Origin: Candidatus Entotheonellaceae bacterium
Lineage (GTDB): Bacteria; Tectomicrobia; Entotheonellia; Entotheonellales; Entotheonellaceae
Reading direction: 5' to 3'
DNA: 64,000 bases
NCBI GenBank assembly: GCA_965238075.1
Contig: OZ250173.1
Span: 1,376,001-1,440,000 of the forward strand
Shown here: positions 5,317 through 51,925 of the stretch, piece by piece
Position numbering within the stretch: the first letter of the stretch is position 1
How the letters are laid out: each line of letters begins with the position of its first letter
The notes under the pieces: generated by a model
What the model was told of the DNA's origin: nothing
What the model saw: the letters and a program-made list of their open reading frames with translations, nothing else
Databases searched by the model: none
Made by a program: the position numbers and the translations under genes

Positions 5317-7668
5317 ATGTCCCGCCGACTGACGCCATCCGATTTACGAAATGCCCTGCCCGACGTGACCTCAACGCTGAAGCTATCCGGCCTGGAAAAG
5401 CCGGTCGACATCTGCCGCGACCGCTGGGGCGTGCCGCACCTGCAGGCGGCTACCGAGCAAGACGCCTTCTTCGCTCAGGGGTTCGTGACGGCCCAGGACC
5501 GCTTGTGGCATATGGATTACGACCGACATCGGGCACTGGGGCGCTGGTCGGAGTTCGCCGGGCCGGACGCCTTGCCGGAGGACCGGCTGATGCGGCGGTT
5601 TCGCGTCGAGCGGGCCGCGCGCATGGATATCGAGGTGACGAGCGGCGCGGCGCGGGACATGCTGGCGGCATACAGCGATGGGGTAAACGCCTTTCTCGCC
5701 AGCACCCGCACGCTGCCGGTCGAATACACCTTGTTGCAGGCCGCCCCGGAACCGTGGGAGCCGTGGCACTGTCTGGCCGTCTACAAGGTCCGTAACATGC
5801 TGATGGGAACATTCGAGATGAAGCTGTGGCGGTTGCGGCTGGCCCTCGGGCTCGGCGTGGAGCGGGCTGCGGCGCTGTTCCAGGGGTATCCGCAGGGCAG
5901 TCTGGTGACGGTGCCGCCGGGCGAGGCGTACGACGGGCCGCCATTGTCGTGCCTCGACGAGCTGGCCGCCGCCGCAGCCGCCTGCAACTGGCTGGGCGAG
6001 GTGGACGCCGGCAGCAACGCCTGGGTGATTTCCGGCGACCGCACGGCCTCCGGGTTGCCGCTGGTGGCGGGAGATTCGCACCGCGCCCTCGACACGCCCA
6101 ACGTCTATTACCAAGTGCACATGGCCTGCCCGTCGTTCCGCGTCAGCGGCTACGCCCTGCCTGGTGTCCCCGGCGCCCCGCACTTCAGCCACAACGCGTA
6201 CGTCGCCTGGGGTATGACGCACGGCTACGCGGACTATCAGGACCTGTTCATCGAACGCTTTCGCAGCCGCGACGGCGTGTTGGAATACGCTTGGCAAGAC
6301 GATTGGCAACCCGCCGAGACCGTCGACGAGGCGCTGCACGCGCGCGACGGCGCGTCGGAAACCTTGCAGGTGGTGGCGACTCGCCACGGCCCCGTCATTA
6401 CCGGCGATCCGCATGCCGGACACGGCCTCGCCTTCAGCCATCCCGGCACCAACAGCGGCACCCCGTGGGCCAACACGCTGTACGACTTGCTGCGGGCGCA
6501 CTCGGCGGACGAGGCCGAGGAGGCGCTGCGGCCCTGGACGGAGCCGGTGAACAACTTCGTCTACGCCGACGTGCACGGCGAGTTCGGCTACCGCTACCGC
6601 GGACGCATCCCCATCCGCCCCATGGCCAACGCCTGGACCGCCGTCCCCGGCTGGGACGGCCGGCACGAATGGCAGGGCGATATCCCGTTCGAGGACATGC
6701 CGCAGACCCGCAATCCATCCGCCGGCTACGTCGTCACCTGCAATCAGGGCGCGGCGCCTGCCGATTATCCGTACTACATCAACACCTACTTCGGCGCCGA
6801 CACGCGCGCCCGGCGGATCACGGCCCGCCTGCAAGAGCTGGCGCCCGGTGCGGCTGCGGTGGCGGACATGGCCGCGGTGCATGCCGATCGCCTGTCGCGC
6901 CCGGCGCAGATATGCCTGAAGATACTCGCGCAAACGCCGCTGCCGGCCGACCCCCGGGTTGCCGAAGCGCGCGACCGGCTACTGGCCTGGGATTGCCGTA
7001 TGGATCGCAACTCGGTGGCCGCGACGATCTACGCCGCCCTGCGCGCCTGCTGGCTGGAGGAGATTCTGAAAACCGCCCTCGGGCCGTTCGCCGACGAGGC
7101 CATCGGCACTGCCGGCACCGGCCGCGGCGGCCCGACGCACGCTCTGCAACTCTATACTCGCGCCGTCCACGCCATGGCGGCGAACGACCCCGCGCCCCTG
7201 CCGCCCGGCCAGACCTGGCCGCAATGCCTGGAGGCCGCCCTGCACCGCGCCGTCGACGACCTGCGCCAGCGCCTCGGCGACGACGTGCAGACTTGGCAGT
7301 GGGGCACGTTGCACCGCACCCGGCCCCAACACCCGCTGTCGCGTGTCTTCCCCGATTGCGCCGACCTGCTCAATCCGCCGCAGATTCCCGCCGGCGGCGA
7401 CGGCGATACGCCGCAACAGGGCGGCAGTTGGACCACAGAGCGCTTCGTCCTGACATCGCTGTCCGTGAACCGCTACATCCACGACCCCGCCGACTGGCGC
7501 CGTTCCCGCTGGGTCGTGCCGCTGGGCGCTTCGGGCCACCCGGGCAGCCCCCATTACGCCGACCAGGCCACCCTGTGGGCCGAGGTTGAGACCGTCCCGC
7601 AGCTGTGGGAGTGGGACGACATCACGGCCGCGGCCGAAACCCGTCAGCGCCTGCTCCCGGCGCCCTGA
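5317..7668 (+). CDS. Penicillin acylase family Ntn-hydrolase
   Basis: RDRWGVPH, AQGFVTAQDRLW, autocleavage/nucleophile motif GSNAWVISGDRTASG.PLVAGDSH, C-terminal GASGHPGSPHYADQ. Confidence 0.92.
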   Translation: MSRRLTPSDLRNALPDVTSTLKLSGLEKPVDICRDRWGVPHLQAATEQDAFFAQGFVTAQDRLWHMDYDRHRALGRWSEFAGPDALPEDRLMRRFRVERAARMDIEVTSGAARDMLAAYSDGVNAFLASTRTLPVEYTLLQAAPEPWEPWHCLAVYKVRNMLMGTFEMKLWRLRLALGLGVERAAALFQGYPQGSLVTVPPGEAYDGPPLSCLDELAAAAAACNWLGEVDAGSNAWVISGDRTASGLPLVAGDSHRALDTPNVYYQVHMACPSFRVSGYALPGVPGAPHFSHNAYVAWGMTHGYADYQDLFIERFRSRDGVLEYAWQDDWQPAETVDEALHARDGASETLQVVATRHGPVITGDPHAGHGLAFSHPGTNSGTPWANTLYDLLRAHSADEAEEALRPWTEPVNNFVYADVHGEFGYRYRGRIPIRPMANAWTAVPGWDGRHEWQGDIPFEDMPQTRNPSAGYVVTCNQGAAPADYPYYINTYFGADTRARRITARLQELAPGAAAVADMAAVHADRLSRPAQICLKILAQTPLPADPRVAEARDRLLAWDCRMDRNSVAATIYAALRACWLEEILKTALGPFADEAIGTAGTGRGGPTHALQLYTRAVHAMAANDPAPLPPGQTWPQCLEAALHRAVDDLRQRLGDDVQTWQWGTLHRTRPQHPLSRVFPDCADLLNPPQIPAGGDGDTPQQGGSWTTERFVLTSLSVNRYIHDPADWRRSRWVVPLGASGHPGSPHYADQATLWAEVETVPQLWEWDDITAAAETRQRLLPAP

Positions 7669-9032: not shown

Positions 9033-9503
9033 CTATACGGCTGGAGCGCTGCTGTCCCGCACGCCCTGCACGGCGTCGGCGATGTCGGCCACGTCGAGCA
9101 CCATTTCCATCAGCGTCACCTGCTCCTCATACACCTCGGGCGACACCTGGCATTTGATCGCCTCCTCGGTGACGTGGTAGACCGGCAGCCCCAACGACGT
9201 GCCGGCCAAGGCGCCGGCCCACGAGGGATCGCCCTCGGTCACCGTCAGGGCGTACAGGCGGCTGCTCTCGGCGGTCGGCGTGCCCAGCACCACCACCATG
9301 TCCTCGCGCGGGTATTGCTCGGCCACCCGCTTGATCTCCTCCTGACCTTCCAGGTCAAGGGCGCCGGCGGCCGTTCAAACGAAACAATGGGTCACCTCCA
9401 GCACCACCTCGGCGCCGGCGCTCGTTGTGCATTGCGCGATGGCGCCGCCCTGGATGCCGTCGCGCTCGCCCAAGGCGATAACCTTCTTACCTTGCAGTTG
9501 CAT
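9033..9503 (-). CDS. grdA: Glycine/sarcosine/betaine reductase selenoprotein A, Sec at codon 43
   Basis: ATG 9503 with AAGGAG ribosome-binding site gives MQLQGKKVIALGERDGIQG...THCFV-[TGA 9375-9377]-TAAGALDLEGQ...TVTEGDPSWAGALAG..LGLPVYHV. Canonical GrdA CxxU motif; 156 aa on read-through. Confidence 0.92.
9341..9360 (-). promoter_or_regulatory. Putative SECIS hairpin of grdA
   Basis: mRNA reads ccu-UGACCU-gga-AGGUCA-gg, starting about 15 nt after the UGA, with G in the apical loop. Confidence 0.6.
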
Positions 9504-9537
9504 GATGAATCTCCTTTCGGGGTTGTCCGTTGGCGCC

Positions 9538-9744
9538 TAGAGCGCTTTCGGAGCAAGACGGTTTGCAGGCCGGGACTTTCCCCTCACCCCAACCCTCTCT
9601 CGCCGGGGGAGAGGGAGCAAAAACCCCCTCTCAGGGTAAAGTCAGCCTCTTGATCCCCTCCCCCCTCCGTGGCGGAGGGCCAGGGAGGGGGCGTATGAGC
9701 CGACCGGTATTTCCACCGGTGCAATCAGATACGTAAATGCTCTA
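9538..9744. mobile_element. MITE-like repeat, copy 1, between grdA and grdC
   Basis: Ends are TAGAGCGCTTTCGG...CGTAAATGCTCTA with internal ccctcaccccaaccctct...gagaggg palindromes. Collinear with the reverse complement of 18699-18884. Confidence 0.7.
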
Positions 9745-11190
9745 ATCGTTGCGCTCCAAAAGCAATGACACGCCGTCGGCCATCTGCGTCATACGGCCGA
9801 GGAACAAGCTGCCCTTGGCGAGCAGCAGCACGCGCTGCAGGTCGCCGCCGCGCAGGCCGTCCACGGCGTGGCCGAGAAAGGGCACCGCCGAGGCGATATG
9901 CCCCTGCGTGGGTGAAAAGCCGGGCATGCCGTGCGCGGCGACGAAATCCGGCACCTGCGCGCGGGTGATTTGCTTGCCCATCGCCGCCAGGCCCGCGATG
10001 ACGCGGTAGTTGAGGAGCGGCACGTTGCCGCTGCCCGCCGGCTCGGTGACCTCCGGGTTGTGCAACTCGGTGGCGTACTTGTCGATGTCGCCGAAGCTCA
10101 GCCCCAGGCGCTGCAGAGGCTCGCTGACGAGTTGCTCGAAGATGGCCTTCTGCGACGGCCCGGCGGCCACGGTGTGGCGGCCCAGGGAGTCCAGTCGGAG
10201 TCTCGGTGAAGCGCCGTCGTCGCCGCTGACCAGAATGGCTACCGCAGCCAGCACGTCCTCCAGAATGGGCTGGTCGTGCTGCACGTGGCCGCGGTACTTC
10301 ATGCCCAGTTTGGAAAGCGCGCACCCCCCAACCACGACAACGTGCGAAAACACCCGGGCGCTGACCAGCCCGCCGGCGATGGCCAGGGCGTGCAGCGGGC
10401 CGCAGCAGAAGCCCTTGATATCGACGCCGGTTGCTGCCTGGCAGCCGCTCATTTCCGCCACCGCCTTGGCCAGGTTGCCGCCGCCGCGCTGGTAGCGGTC
10501 GCCCACCGCCTCCTCGCCGCTATTGAGTACGTAGGGGATGTCCATCGGGTCGATGGGCAACTGCGCCAGCAGGGTGCGCATGGCCAGGACGGCGGTCGTC
10601 TTGCAGGCCAGATTTTCGAGCAGCACGTCGGCGGCGAGCGTGGCATCCACCTCATGCGCGGCATGGAAACAGCCGATGCGGGAACCGTCGCGCAGGAAGA
10701 GCGGCAGGGCGGGCATGTCGCCTGTCAACCGGGCATCAAGATCGGCCTGCGAAACGCCCTTGCCCAATTGCTCGAGGTCGGCCGGCGTGCACAGCGGATG
10801 GACGTCCAGCGCGGGGCGGATGGACTCGATGAAGCCCGTATCCAAACTTACGAGATTGAAAACGTCGGCGATTTTCAGCCAGCCGTAAAACTCCTCCTCC
10901 GGCATGATCTCGCCGTGCGGCCCCCAGCGCTCGCCGCAACCGGCGTGCCGGAACCATGGCGTCGGCAGGCTGGCGAGAGCGTCCGGGTGGATGGCGCCGA
11001 GAAAGGCCTGGTTGGGTGGGTAGGCCGCGGCGTCGGCGTAGCCGCGCAGGTGGGCTTGCAGGGTATCGGCCACCGCCGGGTCGCGGTCGATGTCGCGGCT
11101 GGGCTTGGAGCCGTAGCGTACCAGCCCGGGGGTGTGGGCCAGGAAGAATCGCACCCCCCGGATGACGGGCTGCGCTGTCATCTGCTGCAT
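9742..11190 (-). CDS. grdC: Glycine/sarcosine/betaine reductase component C, FabH-like subunit
   Basis: YPPNQAFLG, HEVDATLAADVLLENLACK, SGEEAVGDRYQRGGGNLAKAVAE, GFCCGP, KLGMK, YATELHNPEVTEPAGSGNVP, GMPGFSPTQGHIAS, KGSLFLGRMT. Confidence 0.9.
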   Translation of the reverse strand: MQQMTAQPVIRGVRFFLAHTPGLVRYGSKPSRDIDRDPAVADTLQAHLRGYADAAAYPPNQAFLGAIHPDALASLPTPWFRHAGCGERWGPHGEIMPEEEFYGWLKIADVFNLVSLDTGFIESIRPALDVHPLCTPADLEQLGKGVSQADLDARLTGDMPALPLFLRDGSRIGCFHAAHEVDATLAADVLLENLACKTTAVLAMRTLLAQLPIDPMDIPYVLNSGEEAVGDRYQRGGGNLAKAVAEMSGCQAATGVDIKGFCCGPLHALAIAGGLVSARVFSHVVVVGGCALSKLGMKYRGHVQHDQPILEDVLAAVAILVSGDDGASPRLRLDSLGRHTVAAGPSQKAIFEQLVSEPLQRLGLSFGDIDKYATELHNPEVTEPAGSGNVPLLNYRVIAGLAAMGKQITRAQVPDFVAAHGMPGFSPTQGHIASAVPFLGHAVDGLRGGDLQRVLLLAKGSLFLGRMTQMADGVSLLLERND

Positions 11191-11212: not shown

Positions 11213-12502
11213 TCAGTACTCGATACAACTCATGCTGGTAAAGCCGTAGTGGTCGTCGTGGCGCGGTGGCGGCGGCAGTTGCCCGGCGGCCGGCACGCGC
11301 TGGTCGCGCAGCGGGCCGATGTCCTTGTACTGCAGGCCGATGACCCGTTCCACCGGCGGCAGGTCAGGCACCTCCAGCGTGCGCGTCTTGAAGAAGCTGG
11401 TGCTGACGATGGCGTTGGCCTCGGGCAGCGGCTCCAGCATGGTCGGGGCGGCCTCGGTGGCGTCGTCCTCGCTGGTCAGGAAGACGGTCTTGATGCCCAG
11501 TTGCTCGCAAGCCTGAATGGTGCGGACGACCTCGATGAACTCGTTGCCGCCGGCGTCCCAGGTCACCATCGCGCCCTGCGCGCCCAGGAGCTTTGCCAGC
11601 TTCGCCGTCTGGTTGGCCATGAGTTGCTTTTCGTGCTGCGTGGTCCACTCGGTACGCAGCGTGATGACACCCAGGAAATTCCAGTCGACGCCGTGGCGGC
11701 GGTACAGGTCGAGCAGCACGGGGTTGTTGGCCACCGTCCACGACATGGCAAACGCCGTGCGGTACGGGCCGGTGAGGGCGCCGTCGAGGATTTCGTTGGG
11801 GTGCAGGAACCATGGCGGCGTCAGTTGGGTGAGGCCGTAGGTGGTGGTGCAGAACGCCGTCGGCGAGCCGGACATGGCCTGCGGCGAGTGCACGCACCAG
11901 ATGTAGATCACGTTAGGGAGGTCAGGGTCGACTACGCGCAGTTCGAACACTTCCTGCTGCGGCGGGGTGAGGTGGCGCGTCGCCGCCGCGACCTGATCGT
12001 TGACCACCAGAGCCGCCTTGTGCACGGCGTCGTTCTGGGCTTCGTTGCCGAGGCCGGGGTCGGGTTCGACGACCGCGCACAGGTGGATGAGTTGGCTCAG
12101 CGGGATGAGTTCCGACCACGGACCGGACATGTCGAGGTAGACTTCCACGAAGTCGCCGCCGGCGTCGTGCCAGTTGACGCTCGACACCTCGGTGATGCCC
12201 ATGCCGGAGAGGCGGTGCGTGCGGCCTTCGCCTACCGTGGTGATGGCGCGGCCAGCGGTGCCGGGGTAGATGACGCCGGGACCTTCCACCTTGATGCGCG
12301 GCTCGATGACATCGCGCACCGGCCAGATGCGGGCGGAGTCGCCGGGACAGGCGATGTCCAGATCGACGCTGGCGATGCGGGGGTCGGCGTGCACGGCTTC
12401 GATGACGGCGTCCTTATCGACCTGCAAATGGCCGTCGGCGTAGCGGGTTTCGGAGCCGAAGGTGATGCGCTCAACGGGGAAGGTGCCCATCTCAAGACGC
12501 AT
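11213..12502 (-). CDS. grdE: Glycine/sarcosine/betaine reductase component B subunit (GrdE/GrdG/GrdI family)
   Basis: MRLEMGTF, DIACPGDSARIWPVRDVIEPRIKV, VGEGRTHRLSG, HPNEILDGA, NNPVLLDLYRRHG..NFLGVI, CEQLGIKTV; overlaps the 3' end of grdB. Subfamily uncertain. Confidence 0.85.
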   Translation of the reverse strand: MRLEMGTFPVERITFGSETRYADGHLQVDKDAVIEAVHADPRIASVDLDIACPGDSARIWPVRDVIEPRIKVEGPGVIYPGTAGRAITTVGEGRTHRLSGMGITEVSSVNWHDAGGDFVEVYLDMSGPWSELIPLSQLIHLCAVVEPDPGLGNEAQNDAVHKAALVVNDQVAAATRHLTPPQQEVFELRVVDPDLPNVIYIWCVHSPQAMSGSPTAFCTTTYGLTQLTPPWFLHPNEILDGALTGPYRTAFAMSWTVANNPVLLDLYRRHGVDWNFLGVITLRTEWTTQHEKQLMANQTAKLAKLLGAQGAMVTWDAGGNEFIEVVRTIQACEQLGIKTVFLTSEDDATEAAPTMLEPLPEANAIVSTSFFKTRTLEVPDLPPVERVIGLQYKDIGPLRDQRVPAAGQLPPPPRHDDHYGFTSMSCIEY

Positions 12503-13841
12503 GCGCCACCTCCTGCTCCGGGGTCATTTCCAACGGGTCGAACAGCGTCGGGCCGGGCACCGGCGTGCAGATGGCGTCGAGGGCGGTGCGCACGATGCGC
12601 ATGCCGTAGGCGTAATCCTTCTCGGGGCCGAGGTTCGGGTCGCCGCACACGTGCTCGATGCGCGAGCCGCGGATGACGCGGACGGCGCCGGTGGTGAGGG
12701 CGAGGTCATAGATGGCGGAGATCATGCCGACGGGGATACCGGCGCGCTCGATTTCCTTGGCGATCGTTGCACCGCAACGATTGCAGGTGCCTCACGTGGC
12801 CACCAGGAGACAGCCGTCAACCCCGCTGTTGACGAGGTCCTGGGCGATGCTGCGGCCCAAGTCGCACGACATGGCGACCGGCGTGGCGACGCCCGGCAGC
12901 GCGTAGATGGAACTGAAGACGCCGCCGATTTGGCCGTCGGCTTCCAGGTCGCGCAGGAAGTTGAGGGGCAGGATGTAGTTGGGATTGGAATTGACGATAT
13001 GGTTGAAATAGCCGGCGTGGTACGCCTCCCAATCGGCGTCGGAGAGGCTTTGCAGCTCGGCGACCGAGTGGCGGTAATACCGGCTGGCGTTGGCGGCGAC
13101 CTGCTTGTCCGGGTTGCCCTTGCGCACCAGGCCGCCGGTGGTGACCATGGCGATGGTGGCTCGCGACAGATCAGTGACGGGCACGGCGGGCTCGACTTTT
13201 TCCGGCGCGTGGATGGGTACCTCGGTAACAAACGGCTGATCCTTGAGCTTGGCCAGCAGCATATCGAGGGCGCGCTGGTAGCCGGGGCGTTGACGGTCAT
13301 GCACGCGCCGCACGCCGCGCGGCATGTAGCCGTCGATCTCCGCCGGTCCGAGCGCCTCCCCGCGGCCCAGCTTGCCTGCCAGCCGCACCATGGCGGCCAG
13401 CGCCTGCGGCATGTCGGCGGACGTTTCGCCGGTCGGCACCATGACGACGTCCGGCCAGCCGCTCAGCGCCCCCGGATTGTCCGGGTGCATGCCGCTGATA
13501 GCCTTGATGCCCAGCGCCTGTGCCGTCTTGCAAACCTCGGCGCACGCCAGCCCGTAGCGCCCGGAGCCAAACGCCGGCCCCGCTACCAGGATGTCCGGCT
13601 TCAGCGCCTCCAGATGCCCCTTGATGGCGGCCACGGCCTCCGCTTCCCGCTCGTTGAAGTAGTTGTCGCCGCAGACCAGCGTGCCCACCACGCTGCCCGC
13701 GCCGCCCAGCGCCTGTTGCAGCGCCCGGCCCGCGCCTACGGGCTCGTTTTCGAGCGACACCCCAACGTTCGCCGCGTCCTCGCCGCCAATACCGCCAAAG
13801 AACTGATTCACGTAATGCACCACGCGCAACGGGCTGTCCAT
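12492..13841 (-). CDS. grdB: Glycine/sarcosine/betaine reductase selenoprotein B, Sec at codon 350
   Basis: VVHYVNQFFGGIGGED, CGDNYF, AGPAFGSGRYGLAC, VTTGGLV.KGNPD, then LLVAT-[TGA 12792-12794]-GTCNRCGATIAKEIERAGIP, in frame to the stop at 12492. Canonical UxxCxxC motif; 449 aa. Confidence 0.93.
12763..12781 (-). promoter_or_regulatory. Putative SECIS hairpin of grdB
   Basis: mRNA reads AUCGUUGC-ggu-GCAACGAU, a perfect 8-bp stem starting 10 nt after the UGA, with a G-containing loop. Confidence 0.65.
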
Positions 13842-13998
13842 GCGTTCACCCTCCTCGACTGTTCAACCCCATGTCTCCGACGCCCAAGGCGGCAGCATTC
13901 TGGATGAACGGCCTGTGCAGGTCAAGGCGGTGATCTCTCTTCGCAGCTGCGGCTGAATAAGGTGCAGAGCCAAGAAAAGCGATTCACCGTTCTGGAAT

Positions 13999-14589
13999 TC
14001 AAGGCCGATTCGTAGATGCCTCGGCCACGCCAGCCAGCAGATTTCCCAGCAGACGCAGGCCATGGTTGTTTTCCATGGTCAGAATTGACTCAGGATGGAA
14101 CTGCACGCCCTCAATGGGCAGGGCGCGGTGGCGGATGCCCATCACCACGTCGCCCCAGGTGGCGGTCACTTCGAAAACGTCGGGAATCGCGTCGCCGACC
14201 AGCGAGTGGTAGCGACCCACCGGCAGGGGTGACGGCAGGTCCTCGTAGATGCCTTGGCCGTAATGGTCAATCTCGCTCTGCTTGCCGTGGTAGGGGCGCG
14301 GCAGCACCCGTAGCGTGCCGCCGAAATACTCGATCATCGCCTGATGGCCCAGGCACACGCCGAACAGCGGCACGTGCTGGTGGAATTGATCAATGTAGGC
14401 CAGCAGGTTGCCGGCGTTGGCAGGCGTCGACGGGCCTGGCGAGAAGACCAGCAAATCCGGCTCCGACGCCGCCACGATGTCCACCGGGATGTCGTTGCGG
14501 TACACCCGCACGGTGCATTCGAGGCGGCGAAAGTAATCGACCAGATTGAAGGTGAACGAATCGAAATTGTCGATCATGGTGATGTTCAT
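13999..14589 (-). CDS. trpG: Anthranilate synthase component II (glutamine amidotransferase)
   Basis: IDNFDSFTFNL, SPGPSTP, GVCLGHQ, GRYHSL, GVQFHPESILT. Confidence 0.92.
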   Translation of the reverse strand: MNITMIDNFDSFTFNLVDYFRRLECTVRVYRNDIPVDIVAASEPDLLVFSPGPSTPANAGNLLAYIDQFHQHVPLFGVCLGHQAMIEYFGGTLRVLPRPYHGKQSEIDHYGQGIYEDLPSPLPVGRYHSLVGDAIPDVFEVTATWGDVVMGIRHRALPIEGVQFHPESILTMENNHGLRLLGNLLAGVAEASTNRP

Positions 14590-14604
14590 GGAAATTCCCC
14601 CCGT

Positions 14605-16227
14605 TTACTCGACGCCATCCAGCGCTTCAAGTAAAGCCCTTGCCTTGGCCTCGGTTTCCGCGTATTCGGCGGCCGGCTCCGAATCGAACAACAGCGTCGA
14701 GCCGACTCGCACGCGCACGTCGTAAGCGGGCGCCGCGCCGCTCTGCCGCCGCACCAGGTGCGCCGTGCGGATGATGATGCCGGTGTCGAGCTGGCCCGAG
14801 AACGTCAGGTAGCCAACGTTGCCCCCGTAGTAGCCGCGGCGGCTTTGCTCGTGGTTCTCGATGTACGCCATGGCTGCCGCCTTGGGCGTTCCTGTCAGGG
14901 TGCCGGCGTTGAGGCAGGCGATGAAGGCGTCGAAGGCAGACAGCCCGGCGGACAACTCGCCTTCCACCTGCGCCACCGTGTGCATCACGCGCGAGTATTT
15001 TTCGACGAAACGATAATCCGAGACGCTAACACCCGGCTCGCACACTCGACTGACGTCGTTGCGCGCCAGATCGATGAGCATGTCGAGTTCCGACTTTTCC
15101 TTCTCCGAGTTCAGCAGCTGCATCATGTTGTGATAGTCGGTGAGGCTGTCGGTGCCGCGCGGCATGGTGCCGGAAATGGGCCGCTGCTGCACCACGCCGC
15201 CTTCCACACGCACGAACATCTCAGGTGAGGCGCCGACCAGCGCCTCGTTGCCGTAATCGACGTAGAACTGGTATGGAGACGGATTGATGGCGCGGAACCG
15301 CCGGTATAGCTCCAGGGGGCTACGGGTATATTCACCCATGAAGCTGTGCGACAAGACGACCTCGAAGAATTCGCCCTGGCGCATCTGCTCGCGCGCCTCG
15401 TCGACCGCCGCCATGAAGGCGTCGCGCCCGGTGTCCGATTCCAGCTTGTGGGGGATGCGATGGCGCTCGGCGGCGGGTGTCGGGGCCGCTGGTTTCAGGC
15501 TGGACAGCCGCTCGCGCACCAGATCGACGGCGGAGGCGGAACTGTCCAGGAAATCGTAAATGATCAGCGTTGCTCGTTCCTTCAGGTGGTCGTAAAACAG
15601 CAGCATGTCCGGCATGAACAGCCGGAAATCCTGGCTGGGGCCGGGTTGCAGACGATCGGGCAACGGCTCGAACAGGCGTACAAAATCGTAGGCGAAAGCG
15701 CCGTACAACCCCAGGAAGCGGTCGTCGCAGCGAAAGTGCCGCAGCAGCGTGCGCACAATCTGCGAGATGTTGTTAAGGAGCAGCCGTTCGTCCTCGGCCA
15801 CCGGACGGCGTTCGCAGGGCACGGTGCCGGTCAGCGCTCGGTCGCCGCGCTGCAGGTCCTGGCAACAGGCGAAGTCAACGTCGGCGAGCGGCTGCCGCAG
15901 CATGGCCCGACCGCGTTCATTCAGGGCGCGGATGGCGAAGGCATCTTCCTTGCCCTCGACCAGCACCGGCGGGTCGATCACCGCCAGGGAGTAGCGGCCG
16001 TAGACGCGCGACACGTCGACCGACTCGTACAACACGCCCGGTGTGTTGGCGTTGAGGTGTTGGTAAAGCTCCAGGGGAGGCAAGTCGTCCCGGCTGAAAT
16101 CGAACGTCAGCGTCAGGCGTCGGAGGTTGCCGCGGCCGTCGCCGTAGGGCAGAACCTCCTCGCTGACCGGTTGCCGCAAGAGATACTCGTGCACGTCGCT
16201 GGCCGTCATGAAGGGTGTGCTTGTCAT
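14605..16227 (-). CDS. trpE: Anthranilate synthase component I
   Basis: LYES, YGRYS, GEFFEVVLS, INPSPYQFY, GASPEMFVRV, PISGT..RG, KEKSELDMLIDLARND, YSRVMH, AGTLTGTPK, DTGIIIRT; Trp-rich leader upstream. Confidence 0.9.
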   Translation of the reverse strand: MTSTPFMTASDVHEYLLRQPVSEEVLPYGDGRGNLRRLTLTFDFSRDDLPPLELYQHLNANTPGVLYESVDVSRVYGRYSLAVIDPPVLVEGKEDAFAIRALNERGRAMLRQPLADVDFACCQDLQRGDRALTGTVPCERRPVAEDERLLLNNISQIVRTLLRHFRCDDRFLGLYGAFAYDFVRLFEPLPDRLQPGPSQDFRLFMPDMLLFYDHLKERATLIIYDFLDSSASAVDLVRERLSSLKPAAPTPAAERHRIPHKLESDTGRDAFMAAVDEAREQMRQGEFFEVVLSHSFMGEYTRSPLELYRRFRAINPSPYQFYVDYGNEALVGASPEMFVRVEGGVVQQRPISGTMPRGTDSLTDYHNMMQLLNSEKEKSELDMLIDLARNDVSRVCEPGVSVSDYRFVEKYSRVMHTVAQVEGELSAGLSAFDAFIACLNAGTLTGTPKAAAMAYIENHEQSRRGYYGGNVGYLTFSGQLDTGIIIRTAHLVRRQSGAAPAYDVRVRVGSTLLFDSEPAAEYAETEAKARALLEALDGVE

Positions 16228-16404
16228 GGTTTCGTCCCCACAGTTACTGTCGTTGCAAATGCTCACTGCCTGCCCCGTGCGGCCTGCACGTCGGGCTGCG
16301 CCGCCACAGGGAACGCGCTTCTGCCGCAAGTGGGCTATGCTTCGATTAAATGATGCCGTACCGGAAAAGGAGCGGAAGAACCGAAACGTCGGGATGGGGC
16401 AGAC

Positions 16405-16524
16405 TTACCAGCGCCACCAGCGGAGGGGACGCCATCGCAAGGCACACAGCGGGTAGGAAGGGGTATGGCCGGATTCGAGAGAGACATCGGGGCCTGTGGC
16501 CGGATAGGGCGCTCGCAGGCTCAT
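16405..16524 (-). CDS. trpL: Putative trp operon leader (attenuator) peptide, 39 aa
   Basis: AAGGAGA ribosome-binding site then ATG 16524: MSLRAPYPATGPDVSLESGHTPSYPLCALRWRPLRWWRW*. Four Trp in the last 9 codons, about 180 nt upstream of trpE on the same strand. Confidence 0.75.
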   Translation of the reverse strand: MSLRAPYPATGPDVSLESGHTPSYPLCALRWRPLRWWRW

Positions 16525-16711
16525 GGACGTTCTCCTTACGCGGAACCGTAAACGCATTAAACGATTGCGGGCGACTATACAGAGGGCCATGGCGCCTGTC
16601 AATCCCGCTGTACCGGAGCCTGTTTTGACTTTCCGCTTGCCCGGCATGTAAGCTGCGTGGCACATTGAGCATTACCGATTCCTGATCTCTGACTGGGGGA
16701 GGATCCGGCCC

Positions 16712-17602
16712 ATGCCACTGGCAGCCATGAACGACGGCACCCGCTTGTACTACGAATCCACCGGCAGCGGCTTCCCGCTGCTGTTCAGCCACGAGTATGC
16801 CGGCGATTACCGTAGCTGGGAGCCGCAAGTACGCTATTTCGCGCGGCGTTACCGGGTGATCGCGTACAACGCCCGCGGCTATCCCCCGTCGGACGTGCCG
16901 GAGGACGTCGGTTCATACTCGCAGGCGCGCGCCATGCACGACATCGCGCAGCTCCTGGAAGCGCTGCAGGTGCCGCAGGCGCATGTGGTCGGCCTGTCGA
17001 TGGGCGGCTACGCTACCCTGCATTTCGGTCTCAACTATCCGCAGATGGCGCGGTCACTGGTTGTGGCGGGATGCGGCTACGGCTCGGTGGCGGGCGACCG
17101 GCAGAAATTCCAGCAGGACTCGGCGCAGGTGGCGCAGCGCATTGAGCACGACGGCATGCAGGCCACGGCTGCCGTGTATGCCAAGGGTCCGACGCGGGTG
17201 CAGTTTGAGGACAAGGACCCACGCGGCTGGCAGGAATTCGCCGATCAGCTCGCCGAGCATTCGGCCACCGGCGCGTCCCTGACGATGCGCGGCGTGCAGG
17301 GTCAACGCCCCTCGGTGTACGAGTTGGAAGACCGGATGCGGCAGTTGCAGGTGCCCACCCTGATCGTTACCGGCGATGAGGACGAACCGTGCCTGGAGCC
17401 GGGGCTGTTCATGAAGCGCGTCATTCCAGCCGCCGGCCTCGTCGTTGTGCCCAAGACCGGCCACACGATCAACCTGGAGGAGCCGGAGTCGTTCAACCGT
17501 ATCGTCAGTGACTTTCTGACCGCTGTGGAATCCGGCCGGTGGCAGGCCCGTAATCCGGCCTCCCTGAGCACCTCGGCCATTCTGCCCGACGAGCAACGGT
17601 GA
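16712..17602 (+). CDS. Alpha/beta fold hydrolase
   Basis: LLFSHEYAGD, YNARGYPPS, nucleophile GLSMGG, GDED, TGHTINLEEP. Confidence 0.9.
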   Translation: MPLAAMNDGTRLYYESTGSGFPLLFSHEYAGDYRSWEPQVRYFARRYRVIAYNARGYPPSDVPEDVGSYSQARAMHDIAQLLEALQVPQAHVVGLSMGGYATLHFGLNYPQMARSLVVAGCGYGSVAGDRQKFQQDSAQVAQRIEHDGMQATAAVYAKGPTRVQFEDKDPRGWQEFADQLAEHSATGASLTMRGVQGQRPSVYELEDRMRQLQVPTLIVTGDEDEPCLEPGLFMKRVIPAAGLVVVPKTGHTINLEEPESFNRIVSDFLTAVESGRWQARNPASLSTSAILPDEQR

Positions 17603-17612
17603 GGACTGAGAT

Positions 17613-18701
17613 ATGTCCCGCCCCAAGGCCCAAGACCTGATCGGCGTCGTTGAAAATCCGCCGGAGCACAGCAGCGCCGCGCAACCGGACGCCGTTGCCC
17701 TGCTTTTCGACGCCCAAGAACCGCCGCCCTTTCCCGAGATGAACATCTTTCCTCTGGAATGGCGAGTCGAAACGCCCCTGCTGCAACAGATTTACGACCA
17801 GGCCCGCACCCCCGGCTGGTCACCCCACACCCTGCCCTGGGACACCCTCAAGGCCGATGATTTCTCCCTCGACGAGCGCTACGCTATGGCCTACTGGTTC
17901 ACCCTGCTGTCGGTGTTCGACGGCTCCGGCCCGGCGGTGTTCTCGCGCGCCTTCATCCACACTTGGGAAACGCACCAGGAAGACCCGGTGCGCAAATGCT
18001 TTTTCTCCATCGTGCGCGATGAGGTGAACCACGAAGAAGTCTGCCAGCGCGCCATCCAGATCCTGACGCCCAACGGGCCGCTCGGTTACGAGCCCGAAAC
18101 GCCCCTCGGCCGCCTCGCCCGCAACAACGTCAAGTGGTATTACCACAACGGTTGCCGCTACTGGAGCGGCTTCAAGAGCGGGATCACGAGATTTCAGCTG
18201 CCGATTCTGTTTGCGTCGTTCCTGATGGGGGAGGTGGCGGCGGCGACGCTGTTCCACGGCATGTACCAGCGCACCACGATGCCGGCGCTCAAAGAGGCGT
18301 TCAAGATGATCGGCAAGGACGAGGCGCGCCATATGGCGATCTGCCTGGCCGTGCTGCGCAGCGTGCTGCCGCGCCTGTCCGACGAGCAGCGTGCCGTCAT
18401 CACCCGGCAGATTCGTGCCGGGTTCGTCTTTCTGTCGGGGATTCTGTACGTGCCGCCCACGGACTTCTGGGAGCTTGGCCCCACCTTCCGCCCCGCACAC
18501 CGCATGCTGGAAGAGGCGGCCCGCGCCGCCGGACTCGGCATCCTGACGGAGGACGAGCGGGCCGAGAACTGGCGCGCTGCGGTGCTGCAGCTGAAGGGCA
18601 TTCTGGAGCCGCACGGGGTGGAATTTCCGGCCCTGCCGGAGATCGGCGTCGATGGCAAGACCGTGGCGATTGACCCGCAGGACATCATCCCGGTGTTTTA
18701 G
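17613..18701 (+). CDS. Ferritin-like (diiron) domain protein
   Basis: Two ExxH motifs (RDEVNHEE, KDEARHM) plus intervening GEVAA; 10 nt after the hydrolase. Confidence 0.75.
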   Translation: MSRPKAQDLIGVVENPPEHSSAAQPDAVALLFDAQEPPPFPEMNIFPLEWRVETPLLQQIYDQARTPGWSPHTLPWDTLKADDFSLDERYAMAYWFTLLSVFDGSGPAVFSRAFIHTWETHQEDPVRKCFFSIVRDEVNHEEVCQRAIQILTPNGPLGYEPETPLGRLARNNVKWYYHNGCRYWSGFKSGITRFQLPILFASFLMGEVAAATLFHGMYQRTTMPALKEAFKMIGKDEARHMAICLAVLRSVLPRLSDEQRAVITRQIRAGFVFLSGILYVPPTDFWELGPTFRPAHRMLEEAARAAGLGILTEDERAENWRAAVLQLKGILEPHGVEFPALPEIGVDGKTVAIDPQDIIPVF

Positions 18702-47630: not shown

Positions 47631-48248
47631 CTACTTCAAAACCCTCCAGTCGCCCCCCGCCGTCCTGCAGGCATAAACCGGCGCTATTCCAGCTTCGAGC
47701 ACCTTGCATTCTGTCAACGTGGTTTCGAGACTTCGGCTTGATCTACCGCGCGGAGGTGCCGTAACGACATTCACCTCCCGCACCGGCGTAACGGACGCCA
47801 CAGGGGCCGGAAGCTGATACGTCACGACAGTCCGCGGCTGCGCTGGCGCCTCATAATAATGGTGGTGCACATGGCGTTCGCGCCGCGGGTGCCGTGGGTG
47901 CACGTATATGGGAGGCTGGAACACCGGGTAGTCGTAATACACGTGTCGTCTGTGCCTCAGATGGCGATGTCCCCGGCGATGATGCCGATAGGGGTCGGGA
48001 TCTACGGCATGATATCCAGCTATTCCCCCGAGCAGCGACCCAACCCCGATGGCAACGCCTCGCTCGGCACCCCTGCCAATTGTCGAGCCGATCGCCCCGC
48101 CGATCACACTCCCCACGATGGCACCGACCACACGTTCGTCATCATCAGAGCCGGCCTGAGCGGACGGACTCACCGCCATGAACGCAACCGCAGCCAAAAT
48201 TCCTGCGGCAAGGGGTCGAAAAGCTTTACCTCGGATCATTACCGCCAA
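47631..48248 (-). CDS. Glycine-zipper 2TM exported protein
   Basis: Signal peptide; VGAIVGSVIGGAIGSTIGRG..GVAIGVGSLLGGIAG; His/Arg-rich linker; C-terminal ACRTAGGDW. Confidence 0.75.
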   Translation of the reverse strand: MAVMIRGKAFRPLAAGILAAVAFMAVSPSAQAGSDDDERVVGAIVGSVIGGAIGSTIGRGAERGVAIGVGSLLGGIAGYHAVDPDPYRHHRRGHRHLRHRRHVYYDYPVFQPPIYVHPRHPRRERHVHHHYYEAPAQPRTVVTYQLPAPVASVTPVREVNVVTAPPRGRSSRSLETTLTECKVLEAGIAPVYACRTAGGDWRVLK

Positions 48249-48279
48249 CCTCCTCTATGGTGTTGCGTATATCCTTGCC

Positions 48280-49707
48280 TCACTGCTGGTTCAACCGGTT
48301 CAAGTAATCCGGTATTCCATCGCCATCCTCGTCGGCAAAGCTGCGCTGGCGGGCCGGCACACGGCTCGCCTCTTCAGGCATTGCTTGACGGCGGCGGAGC
48401 ACCATGCCCCGTGACAGGTCAACGACGTCCGAAATCAATTCGGCGATACTGTATTTGGGCTTGACGGTCACAATCCGCGCAATGCCAACGGAGGTTTCGA
48501 GCTGGTCGAGCCGTTCACCGGTATCGGGATCCAACAGCCAGTCGCCTACCGCAAAGACTTCAAACACGCTGCCCGCTTCAACCGTGTTGCCACCCCGGTT
48601 GACGACGAACTGACCTGGTCCCAGCACTTCTGTCACGCGCGGCGGATAGATGTTCTCCGTCAATTCATCGACCATGCGAACCGCAACTTCTTCCAGAAGG
48701 GCCTCTGCTGCTGCTTCGGGCCTCAGCCCCGGGGGCAGCCTACTGTCGAGGGTAATAGCGGAGGACCATTTGACCTGCCGCGTTGCCGCAGCAAGCACGG
48801 TGAATCGCACCTTTGTAGCCCCGTGGGATCGCTCGATTCGCTCACCGGAGGCTCGGATGACTCGGGTCTCGTTTTCAATTGCGACCCGGTCGATCGTGCC
48901 GTACACCAAGTAATCTGCTCCCATGACTCTGCCGAGCCGGGCCCGTTCGCCGATGCCCACGCCCCCGGATGCGAGGATTTGTTTCTCGGCCTCGTACACC
49001 TCCGGTCGTTGACGATCAAGCACGCCAAACCGCCGGCCTTGCGTCAACAGCTCTTCCACCTTTGCACGGAAACCGTGTTGAAGCTTCCTGACAAGCTTGA
49101 AGTCAACGTCTGTACCAACGCGCACGGCACGGCCATCAACCTGCAACTGTCGTCCACCGCCGACCCCGTGGAGATGAACCTCTTCCATCGGAAAGTCGAG
49201 CACGGCCAGCCGCCGCCGATCCATTGATGGCCCCGGCACCCGGTATACCGAATACCGCACACGAACCGCCGCCCGAATCTGTGAACCAGCGCGCCCTACG
49301 GAAAGGATGTCGTAGCCGTCGAAGCCGCAATTCGGATTCTTGCCGCGAACCTTGATTTGCCGATTGACCTTTTCGATCATCGTCGTACGGTCATCGTCCT
49401 CCACAAGCAGCGACCCGGTCTCCATCCTCGACTCGATGTGAACCCCGCAGATCTGGAATGTCGCCTCTTGCAACGCATTCAGAACTGCCTCCTGTTCGCT
49501 GATTCCCCACCCGTCAACATCACGGGTGACGGCGCGAACCTGCGCATTTGCAACTGATACGAAGAAGGCAGCACATATCGCTACCGTGACGACCCCTATG
49601 ACCTGACCGGCCAGGACGTGTTTTCTTGTACGTTCCATGGCTGCCTCCACCATTTTGACGGCAATCTCGACATCTTCGGCTTCTTCTGGCGCAGCACCAT
49701 ATGGCAA
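48280..49707 (-). CDS. CsgG/HfaB-like protein with FlgT C-terminal domain
   Basis: GISEQEAVLNALQEA, RRLAVLDF, LTQGRRFGVLDR, LGRVMGADYLVYGTI, VVNRGG, DPDTGERL; true start probably downstream of 49707. Confidence 0.7.
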   Translation of the reverse strand: MPYGAAPEEAEDVEIAVKMVEAAMERTRKHVLAGQVIGVVTVAICAAFFVSVANAQVRAVTRDVDGWGISEQEAVLNALQEATFQICGVHIESRMETGSLLVEDDDRTTMIEKVNRQIKVRGKNPNCGFDGYDILSVGRAGSQIRAAVRVRYSVYRVPGPSMDRRRLAVLDFPMEEVHLHGVGGGRQLQVDGRAVRVGTDVDFKLVRKLQHGFRAKVEELLTQGRRFGVLDRQRPEVYEAEKQILASGGVGIGERARLGRVMGADYLVYGTIDRVAIENETRVIRASGERIERSHGATKVRFTVLAAATRQVKWSSAITLDSRLPPGLRPEAAAEALLEEVAVRMVDELTENIYPPRVTEVLGPGQFVVNRGGNTVEAGSVFEVFAVGDWLLDPDTGERLDQLETSVGIARIVTVKPKYSIAELISDVVDLSRGMVLRRRQAMPEEASRVPARQRSFADEDGDGIPDYLNRLNQQ

Positions 49708-49718
49708 TGGGTTCCCTT

Positions 49719-51146
49719 CTAAAAATCCTCCGTTTGGATGTTCTCTCTGCGCAACAACCTTGGGGTCGGTTCTATGGCCTCCTCGTCGGGCGTGGTTTTC
49801 TTAGGAGATGCTCTGTTCGGATTGCGCATTACCTCTTGTGCCCGTTTCGCCGTCGCCACGCCTGTCGGAGACCAAGAGACCGCTACAACCGCAACCTTCT
49901 GTCCATTGGCTGGATGCGGTACAACCCACCGGCCAACCACTGTGAGCCCTGTTAATTCAATGGCGTCGGTGTTTGACTTCAGCTTCTCCATAAAGTCGTT
50001 CCTAATTTCCCCGCTGAAGGCTGCGTCAGCATACTCGGTGGCGGTCTCCTCGCCCTCATCTGCTCTTTCCGATCTCACGGTCTCACCCACGAACCCCCGT
50101 ATGGCACCTATGGCACGAACCTCGGCCCGACTTAATGCCATATCCTCTGCCCTTGCTCGGCGAGATGGTGAAGCCCTGCGCGGTGCGGCCTGACCAAATC
50201 CGACGAATACTTGGTCACCGTTCTCATCAATCAGCTTGTGAACACCCCAACTTGCGGAGATAGAGTCCTTACGCTTCGGCAACCAGTCAGAAACACGGAC
50301 TCTCGCTTTGCCTGTGTTCGCTGGCGCATATCCTCCAGCGACTGCTCGAGCAGCAAGTTCAAGCCGAGGGCTCCACACCAATCCAACGAGAATCTCGTAA
50401 GACTTACCATCTTGCGTTGGCCCTTCTAGCACCGCCATGGGCATGGCGCCAGACACAAAGCTTGAAGACACTGCCGTAATTTTCCTCTCGAAGGTGCTGC
50501 GGAAAGCCTCCTCTTTCTGCTCGCGACTGCCATACTTATCCGGATCATACATCGGATCAACCTGCACGAGCGCCTGGTCGAGTTGCGCTTCCGCGAGAGC
50601 TTGCATCTTTTTCGCAATCCGATCCACTTGCTTCAGGCGTTCGAGGGCTTCCCCTTGACCATCTGACCACCGTGCATTCTCAAGAGCATCATACGAAGTT
50701 CTTTTTCCGGTCTCGATTCCGAGAAACCCTACCAGCGTGACCTTGGCACGAAGGTAAGCAATCTCATATGCCATGCTACGCGACTCATGAAATCCTGGAT
50801 GATCTATCGGAAACTCTACCGTTTGTCGACCATTGGCTATGTATATATCCCGTTCGTTTGCTCCTTCTTGAAGACCTTTTTCGTCAAGGAGATCCTCCCA
50901 ATCTGCCATCAAACCAGCACTGTACATGCCAACGTGCTGGTTGGCCAAATCGTCCGGCAGTCGTTCCGTCGCTTCTTCCGCCGTCGTCGAGTCGGCAGCG
51001 GGCGCCTCCACCTCGGCTGCGACAGCCACCGCATGGCTAACCATCAGAAAAACGGCCAGCATAAGAAGCCCGGCGTGTAGAACGAAGGAACCTTTCCGGA
51101 ATCCTTTCCCAAGCATCAACACAGTCTGCTCGGATTGCTTCTTCAT
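49719..51146 (-). CDS. Exported hypothetical protein typical of LpoB/CsgG lipoprotein clusters
   Basis: Signal peptide; 475 aa; SRSMAYEIAYLRAK, DENGDQVFVGFGQ. Confidence 0.65.
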   Translation of the reverse strand: MKKQSEQTVLMLGKGFRKGSFVLHAGLLMLAVFLMVSHAVAVAAEVEAPAADSTTAEEATERLPDDLANQHVGMYSAGLMADWEDLLDEKGLQEGANERDIYIANGRQTVEFPIDHPGFHESRSMAYEIAYLRAKVTLVGFLGIETGKRTSYDALENARWSDGQGEALERLKQVDRIAKKMQALAEAQLDQALVQVDPMYDPDKYGSREQKEEAFRSTFERKITAVSSSFVSGAMPMAVLEGPTQDGKSYEILVGLVWSPRLELAARAVAGGYAPANTGKARVRVSDWLPKRKDSISASWGVHKLIDENGDQVFVGFGQAAPRRASPSRRARAEDMALSRAEVRAIGAIRGFVGETVRSERADEGEETATEYADAAFSGEIRNDFMEKLKSNTDAIELTGLTVVGRWVVPHPANGQKVAVVAVSWSPTGVATAKRAQEVMRNPNRASPKKTTPDEEAIEPTPRLLRRENIQTEDF

Positions 51147-51223
51147 CGTCTTATGCTCCTATCATTGAGAATTACGCGATACTCAATCGACATGACAACC
51201 TTGTGGCGCACACGTTCCTTGGT

Positions 51224-51862
51224 CTACCAAACAAAATTATCGTTCGGACCCAGTTTGGCGATAACCGCCTCGAACTCCCAGTAGGCCAGGCCGGTTTCAA
51301 TATTGGTCGCCGTCAACTGGAAGTAATAGTCGGCTTGCTGCTTGTTGCCAACCCGGTTGACGCGCTGAATGATTTTTCCAGACAGGCTGAGATCAGGCGC
51401 AACCATCGTACCCCTACCCGCAACCGTGTCCTGGTTGAACTCATCCGAATCCCTGAGCTGTCGAACCTCCATGCTCAGTGCGTCTTCCGGCCCGTCCGCG
51501 CCGACTGCCGTCGTTACCATCACGCGTCCGCTGTTCAGAAGCGCAACGCGCATCTTCTTGACCAACTGGTCTGCATCAAGATTAAGCGTCGTGTCGTTCG
51601 TAATGCGACTGATCGCCATGATCCAAGGCGCCGAGCTCCCGGGCTTGCGGGACAACGGACTGTTCAAGAATGAATCTACAGCCTTTTTGGCGGAATATTC
51701 GAAATCACGATAGTCCAGGCCGAACGTTGTCTCACCGCCTGTTTGTTGACGCGTCGTGTATGTCGGATCACTAAGATTGACGACGCTCGTTGTACCGCAT
51801 CCGGTCAAGCCGATTGACCCGACTAAAATAGCAAGAACGAGTAGTCCGTAGCCTGATTTCAT
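51224..51862 (-). CDS. lpoB: Penicillin-binding protein activator LpoB-like lipoprotein
   Basis: Lipobox LTGC; GLDYRDF..A...VDSFL, ITNDT, RVALLNSG, LSLSGKI, YYFQL...TGLAYWE. Confidence 0.75.
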   Translation of the reverse strand: MKSGYGLLVLAILVGSIGLTGCGTTSVVNLSDPTYTTRQQTGGETTFGLDYRDFEYSAKKAVDSFLNSPLSRKPGSSAPWIMAISRITNDTTLNLDADQLVKKMRVALLNSGRVMVTTAVGADGPEDALSMEVRQLRDSDEFNQDTVAGRGTMVAPDLSLSGKIIQRVNRVGNKQQADYYFQLTATNIETGLAYWEFEAVIAKLGPNDNFVW

Positions 51863-51925
51863 TTGGTGTCTCCTCATATACGTTCTCGTTTACGTTCTCG
51901 TTGGCCCGTCCGAGTGGGGAGATTG

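Follow-up and report, generated by a model that had tools for sequence, protein, structure and literature searches.

A GrdE-like protein without the processing cysteine in a selenocysteine-dependent, GrdD-less Grd operon of an Entotheonellaceae bacterium

The window that we analysed, a stretch of 64,000 nucleotides from a Candidatus Entotheonellaceae bacterium (contig OZ250173.1), carries on one strand an operon of four genes in the order grdB-grdE-like-grdC-grdA, in which both grdB and grdA hold a selenocysteine (Sec) codon. The first gene encodes a GrdB-type selenoprotein B of 449 aa (12492..13841, minus strand; read-through translation), whose in-frame TGA (12792..12794, minus strand) is read as Sec350 within VAT-U-GTCNRCGA, in keeping with the translation and with the TGA found in related loci. 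The 3' end of grdB overlaps the ATG start of the grdE-like gene by 11 bases, and this adjacency together with the start/stop overlap makes it likely that the two products work as a pair. The grdE-like gene itself (11213..12502, minus strand) encodes a GrdE/GrdI-family (Gly_reductase, PF09338) subunit of 429 aa, which on translation proves to be without the processing Cys; the plus-strand frame of the same interval was rejected as a gene, the coding strand being the minus strand. Downstream follow grdC, for the 482-aa protein C beta subunit (9742..11190, minus strand; NF040746, 604.9 bits, cut-off 450), which along its whole length shares 43% identity with the canonical GrdC of Acetoanaerobium noterae, and, after a spacer of 238 bp, grdA (9033..9503, minus strand). 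The latter is an open reading frame with TGA (9375-9377, minus strand) taken as U, and gives a selenoprotein A of 156 aa with Sec43 in CFV-U that matches Pfam GRDA at 203 bits and NF040748 at 206.6 bits (cut-off 130). The operon thus encodes a Sec protein B, a selenoprotein A and a protein C beta subunit. Both UGA codons are followed by hairpins that are candidate SECIS elements. That of grdB lies 13 nt past the UGA and has an 8-bp stem and a GGU loop (12763..12781, minus strand), with a fold of -17.3 kcal/mol over 53 nt and z -1.66, a modest statistic for a putative role, and that 3' of the grdA UGA (9338..9361, minus strand) folds at -20.2 kcal/mol over 56 nt with z -0.70, a weak one. The genome, a single contig of 3.35 Mb that is 93% complete, encodes tRNA-Sec and SelA.

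RNA-library contigs from two studies, one of them labelled sponge metagenome, cover the operon from grdA to grdB at 95% identity at least, and one contig (11462-13806) runs across the grdB/grdE-like junction; as such contigs may contain DNA, they give only a hint of transcription, and no weight was given to uncovered stretches or to unequal depth among the genes. Within the grdC-grdA spacer, 9537-9741 is a repeat of about 205 bp that is dispersed through the genome, with 56 more partial matches (66-92% identity); exactly this interval is skipped by one RNA-library contig, and the spacer measures 40 bp in close relatives. Other genes of the window deserve brief mention. Near the operon, at 5317-7668, is a gene for a 783-aa PvdQ-like acylase of the penicillin-amidase family, which the closest relatives (L023-L025) also keep. 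Upstream, 13999-18701 holds a pair of genes for a TrpE-like protein of 574 aa, which reaches no NCBIfam equivalog cut-off, and for a TrpG-like one; arranged back to back with this pair are genes for an alpha/beta hydrolase and for an AurF-like protein (p-aminobenzoate N-oxygenase family). The set is kept in L025 and could belong to a small aminoarene or nitroarene pathway rather than to tryptophan synthesis; we rejected a functional link between the trpE-like and trpG-like genes and the operon, because they are kept in only one of 78 related loci (L025). Finally, 48001-52000 has a G+C content of 0.564 against about 0.65 elsewhere and a strong negative GC skew, and may be foreign DNA.

The GrdE-like protein scores 262.5 bits on PF09338 (Gly_reductase; cut-off 22.2), with residues 1-391 on model positions 1-384 of 426, and by this match is a member of the Gly_reductase superfamily of GrdE, GrdG, GrdI and FarE. 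The pyruvoyl proproteins of this superfamily are cleaved into chains of about 25 and 22 kDa, leaving an N-terminal pyruvoyl group. Alignments to GrdE, GrdG and GrdI references place the counterpart of the GrdE self-cleavage site in the loop E237-P261 (11720..11794, minus strand), which translates as EILDGALTGPYRTAFAMSWTVANNP. Here the protein has TGPYRTAFAMS where GrdE and GrdG have SGN-C-V..C-DK, so that SGN-C is replaced by GPYR(T), and the stretch from DGA to NNP is three residues shorter than in the references (16 vs 19) and has no Cys at all; both members of the Cys pair of the GrdE/GrdG proproteins (SGN-C; C-x-x-C-DK) are absent. The sequence-only reading had claimed this absence against the proprotein motif of glycine and sarcosine reductases. 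The motif agrees with the GrdE and GrdG reference sequences, and the translation and the alignment bear out the claim, the residue opposite the processing Cys being, depending on gap placement, Tyr247 or Arg248 and neither Cys nor Ser. The comparison supports the view that the protein is without any residue that could form a pyruvoyl group at the canonical site. A pyruvoyl group derived from Ser254 was considered and rejected, the Ser/Thr-aromatic position there being conserved in Cys-type members too.

Among the references, GrdE of A. noterae, whose partner GrdB scores 945.7 on TIGR01917 (cut-off 602.2), has the site stretch DGAILSGNCVSACDKNPTYVHMNNP / DGAILSGNCVSACDK, and the two annotated GrdG of Peptoclostridium acidaminophilum have DGAITSGNCVAPCDKVTTFHHLNNP / DGAITSGNCVAPCDK; in PrdA-like references the corresponding stretch is ALT-C-IGP. 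Another protein of A. noterae, in which Phe replaces the Cys (DGAVISGSFMPCSS), was taken as GrdI because its partner reaches 811.6 on the GrdH model (cut-off 775) and because the next gene encodes a betaine BCCT transporter (687.3, cut-off 650). GrdI and FarE both lack the two Cys and are not proproteins, according to PMC10838667; with the Phe of the GrdI reference, this upholds the earlier statement that GrdI is not cleaved. The GrdB partner encoded in the window belongs to the general family (TIGR01918, 421.5 bits, cut-off 65.45) and falls below the GrdB (373.8 vs 602.2), GrdF and GrdH (359.3 vs 775) cut-offs, being about equidistant from the three, with 41% identity to GrdB, 38% to GrdF and 35% to GrdH.

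A word-indexed search returned 1870 proteins, and the best 120 of these 1870, which we used as close homologues, are 74-92% identical to the GrdE-like protein and nearly all 429 aa long. Their names at the source are 'glycine reductase', 'sarcosine reductase' or 'hypothetical', and the cluster names for ten representatives were generic only, with GrdI in none. In species-representative genomes we found 78 related loci (56-96% identity). The closest, at 94-96%, come from uncultured Candidatus Entotheonella or Tectimicrobiota, and the other hosts include Binatia, Rokubacteria/Methylomirabilota/NC10, Dehalococcoidia/SAR202, Nitrospinota and Acidobacteriota, and further Deferrimicrobiaceae, Gemmatimonadales, SAR324 and Desulfocapsaceae. 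The loop DGA-x-[TSN]-GPYR-[TS]-x-F-A-[MT]-SW is present in all 120 of the close homologues (best 120 of 1870) and in the related loci; a Cys two residues before the loop Tyr occurs in 2 of the same best 120, and two Desulfobulbales-type loci have S-C-P-Y-R. That the loop is invariant across homologues and phyla indicates that the loss of the Cys is neither chance nor strain-specific. The gene order is conserved as well: grdB lies directly upstream of the grdE-like gene in 67 of the 69 loci with room for it, and of the 61 loci with room downstream, 45 have grdC and 42 have grdA. The Sec codon of the partner grdB is TGA in each of the 73 loci that hold that part of the gene (5 of the 78 do not) and a Cys codon in none.

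Three Dehalococcoidia/SAR202 loci (L079, L080, L083) have only one grdC-grdA, flanked by two or three GrdB/GrdE-like pairs that belong to different clades; L079 has at 12603-13955 an open reading frame matching the Pfam UGSC family, and in another Dehalococcoidia locus (L035:7436-8383) a SelD-like (AIRS/AIRS_C) gene is found directly upstream of grdB. The genome under study holds three GrdB/GrdE-like pairs with only one grdA and only one grdC. None of the three GrdE-like paralogues has the Cys, and the TGA is found in each of the three GrdB paralogues. In the first pair, the GrdB paralogue (genome 600341-601718; L101:11341-12718) has Sec with no CxxC after it, PAT-U-GTGTRSGA, and its GrdE-like partner reads SGNY at the site; a missing CxxC after Sec is a trait of the fluoroacetate reductase FarB according to PMC10838667. 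The neighbourhoods of the two other paralogue loci in the genome held nothing telling.

Also absent from these systems is GrdD, the protein C alpha subunit, which bears the thiol releasing acetyl phosphate and so forms that product. In A. noterae the canonical operon runs trxB-trxA-grdE-grdA-grdB-grdC-grdD, and its GrdD scores 581.1 (cut-off 350). With this as the control, no model match to GrdD was obtained in the present genome, in any genome of the phylum (17, of which 15 have GrdC above cut-off) or, above cut-off, in four clade-bearing genomes of other lineages; a tblastn search with the A. noterae protein as query found it in none of the 78 related loci. Neither Pta nor AckA was found in this genome. 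The genome being 93% complete, the absence of GrdD, Pta and AckA there is not proof when taken alone, and the phylum-wide count for GrdD is the stronger evidence. With GrdD, Pta and AckA all absent, acetyl phosphate is an unlikely product and some other fate of the acetyl group is suggested. The GrdD model gave weak matches in six control genomes, presumably to their PlsX, and none at E <=0.001 in the 17 genomes of the phylum, where PlsX may be missing or very divergent. The GrdE-like protein is a member of a widely conserved, Sec-dependent, GrdD-less and uncharacterised variant of the Grd system. Literature searches over parts of the published texts found no description of the clade with the GPYR loop, and the marine studies that sought grdH and grdI used clostridial queries (PMC9321204, PMC9999580).

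Does the missing Cys, by itself, point to a kind of substrate? HMMER, run in full against 1.84 billion cluster representatives, gave 1087 relatives at E <=0.001, of which we took the best 150. Once 41 fragments or long forms had been left out, 109 representatives of 380-480 residues were aligned with three paralogues and four references (116 rows); the 109 are the nearest full-length representatives, a sample skewed to the query's side. In this sample from the best 150 of 1087, the processing column holds Cys in 5 of the 109 representatives, and in 8 of all 116 rows (GrdE, both GrdG and the five representatives); Tyr stands there in 43 of 116 rows and Phe in 10 of 116, the GrdI reference being one of the latter. 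A midpoint-rooted FastTree tree of the 116 rows gathers the Cys forms in a 7-leaf clade (support 0.961), with the window protein outside, and GrdE, GrdG and GrdI in a 12-leaf clade made up of the Cys forms, GrdI and three others (0.994), again without the window protein. The latter groups with P0123 (support 1.0), and paralogue C joins more loosely, in a group of 12 leaves (0.825). Patristic distances are 2.78 to GrdE and 3.10 to GrdI, compared to 1.55 between GrdE and GrdI. Judging from these sequences, the enzymes of known substrate are confined to one corner of the family, and outside it absence of the Cys is the rule. Since the Cys-less state is that of the majority, the absence as such points to no substrate class.

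Structure comparison was of little help in placing the protein. A sequence search of solved structures at E up to 1 gave no match to it. The AlphaFold model is a confident one (pLDDT 89.9, pTM 0.91), and Foldseek gave nothing significant with it (best E 5.8e-3, TM 0.25 or less), a wide structural search returning only generic matches to alpha/beta domains over residues of about 190-420 (best Z 5.2). The predicted model has no nameable fold relative, which does not show that the fold is new.

Each of the characterized systems resembles the window operon in some respects and departs from it in others. With GrdE and GrdG the protein shares the Pfam family over residues 1-391, a Sec GrdB-type partner and a downstream GrdA (Sec) and GrdC, and its identity to GrdG is about 34%. 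It differs from them in lacking the Asn-Cys site and the second Cys, in its loop, shorter by three residues, in its position outside the Cys clade (0.961) and in its score on the NCBIfam GrdG model (208.9 vs a cut-off of 780), and GrdD, part of the A. noterae operon, is missing from that of the window. GrdI likewise has no Cys at the processing column, with Phe where the window protein has Tyr, and presumably neither of them is a proprotein (PMC10838667). GrdI, however, keeps the 19-residue loop and groups with GrdE and GrdG, and it has a partner that passes the GrdH cut-off and a BCCT gene next to it, neither of which is seen in the window operon. FarE/FarB of Cloacibacillus porcorum MFA1 are another protein-B pair without the processing Cys and are the precedent for leaving groups other than nitrogen, their supposed role being to supply GrdA and GrdC from an X-CH2-COO- substrate that is not an amine (PMC10838667). 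The window protein differs from FarE by model score (120.8 vs a cut-off of 675), its GrdB partner keeps the CxxC (U-GT-C-NR-C) that is absent from FarB, and no radical-SAM or antiporter gene was seen near the operon. As for PrdA, the homology is distant (TIGR04480, E 1.6e-8; 33.7 vs a cut-off of 700). PrdA is longer, is processed at a Cys and is independent of GrdA and GrdC, whereas both of these are encoded in the window operon.

The explanation that we favour, and consider reasonably probable, is that the GrdE-like protein is the unprocessed, substrate-side subunit of protein B in a Sec-dependent, GrdD-less reductase acting on a compound X-CH2-COO- that needs no Schiff base. It builds on what the sequences show: which genes make up the operon, that the Cys and GrdD are missing, and how well the system is conserved. 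As the Asn-Cys self-cleavage site is replaced by an invariant G-P-Y-R-(T/S) loop, the protein would not hold an amine as a Schiff base, and the likeliest type of substrate would be an alpha-substituted acetate whose leaving group departs without such activation, X being neither NH3+ nor CH3NH2+. By homology, Sec350 of GrdB would attack the alpha carbon and displace X, the carboxymethyl group would pass to Sec43 of GrdA, and GrdC would convert it to an enzyme-bound acetyl group. With GrdD, Pta and AckA all missing, this group would probably leave as acetyl-CoA or acetate rather than as acetyl phosphate. What would count against this explanation is a carbonyl made elsewhere than in the loop of the GrdE-like protein, as could in principle be the case: a formylglycine in the STUG motif of GrdB has been speculated upon (PMC10838667), and the GrdB of the window has ATUG.

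A substrate other than glycine or sarcosine thus appears likeliest, given that the protein has no pyruvoyl residue and that GrdI and FarE, the precedents in PMC10838667, are not proproteins. To this extent the substrate proposed by the sequence-only reading stands; its narrowing to a quaternary amine, a sulfonium compound or a marine osmolyte is not supported in view of the Cys-less majority, the tree, the GrdH score, the missing BCCT gene and the soil and groundwater hosts. There is no positive pointer to betaine or any other compound in the data. Among the related loci, no transporter or feeder enzyme is conserved that would hint at a substrate, and a Pfam scan of the flanks of nine diverse loci found no recurring transporter, regulator or feeder enzyme. 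TctAC with Trx/TrxB was seen only in two Desulfobulbales-type loci, TRAP in one NC10 locus and a rhodanese in L032 only; the transporters that adjoin the operon, TctAC and TRAP, are carboxylate carriers.

A bolder form of the favoured explanation, which we put forward tentatively, would make of these proteins the core of a third, deep-branching class of Grd-type selenoenzymes with neither pyruvoyl group nor GrdD. Its members would cleave a bond between carbon and a heteroatom that is not known as a target of Grd enzymes, in a haloacetate, a sulfur- or arsenic-onium acetate or a tertiary amine, for example, with the invariant Tyr-Arg pair of the loop serving the leaving group and the acetyl group going directly to acetyl-CoA, and the class would be spread through uncultured phyla that are for the most part aerobic or microaerobic (Tectimicrobiota, Rokubacteria, SAR202, Nitrospinota).

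Three rival explanations can be envisioned. The one that survives best, and which we still regard as unlikely, is that of a betaine-type reductase subunit, acting on glycine betaine or on another onium acetate such as dimethylsulfonioacetate or proline betaine, whose charged leaving group requires no Schiff base. An aromatic residue does replace the Cys at the site, as in the GrdI reference, a good OpuAC-type binding protein (184.8 bits) is encoded once in the genome, some 300 kb from the operon, and RNA-library contigs bearing the operon are labelled sponge metagenome, betaine-type osmolytes being common in sponges. Against it, the GrdB partner scores less than half of the GrdH cut-off (359.3 vs 775), which the reference GrdH passes with 811.6, and the protein is placed outside the clade of GrdE, GrdG and GrdI (0.994), farther from GrdI (3.10) than from GrdE (2.78). 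Moreover, BCCT genes occur in 0 of the 78 loci and nowhere in the genome, MttB was not found in the genome, the transporters adjoining distant members are of the carboxylate type, and the clade is common not only in marine phyla but also in those of soil and groundwater (Rokubacteria, Methylomirabilota, Acidobacteriota).

It can also be hypothesized, though we think it improbable, that the enzyme is still a glycine or sarcosine reductase, serving glycine catabolism or the reductive glycine route, in which a carbonyl or some other device away from the canonical Cys activates the amine. In most lineages the GrdE-like protein-B pair accompanies a single grdC-grdA, as a primary enzyme would; GrdA and GrdC pass their equivalog cut-offs, and the GrdB partner keeps UxxCxxC. 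Yet both Cys of the processing motif are gone from a loop that is rebuilt and invariant, the GrdB score of 373.8 is well under the glycine-reductase cut-off of 602.2, the Cys is missing from all three paralogues of the genome, and there is no GrdD, Pta or AckA for using acetyl phosphate. In addition, Nobu et al. count only 107 species, with GrdB filtered by a motif of known glycine reducers (PMC9751293), a filter that may or may not have let this clade through. The third rival is that the protein has no catalytic role and is a degenerate or merely structural remnant of a Grd operon. Losing both a catalytic residue and GrdD might look like decay, but the 56-96% identity over at least 8 phylum-level lineages with an invariant loop, the costly Sec codon kept in 73 of 73 loci, the intact and overlap-coupled reading frames and the cover by RNA-library contigs leave this idea close to refuted and hardly credible.

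In textbooks, the Grd enzymes are a speciality of strict anaerobes, which gain ATP from acetyl phosphate. Here we find the selenium machinery of Grd in a stripped form, with no pyruvoyl group and no GrdD, whose Sec codons are conserved across many uncultured phyla from soil, groundwater, the ocean and sponges, and which is present in RNA libraries. The labels 'glycine reductase' and 'sarcosine reductase' that databases attach to genes of this clade are not justified. Identification of the substrate and product would add a reaction to the cycling of carbon and selenium in those habitats, and the identity of the substrate would show how far the X-CH2-COO- chemistry of the family reaches.
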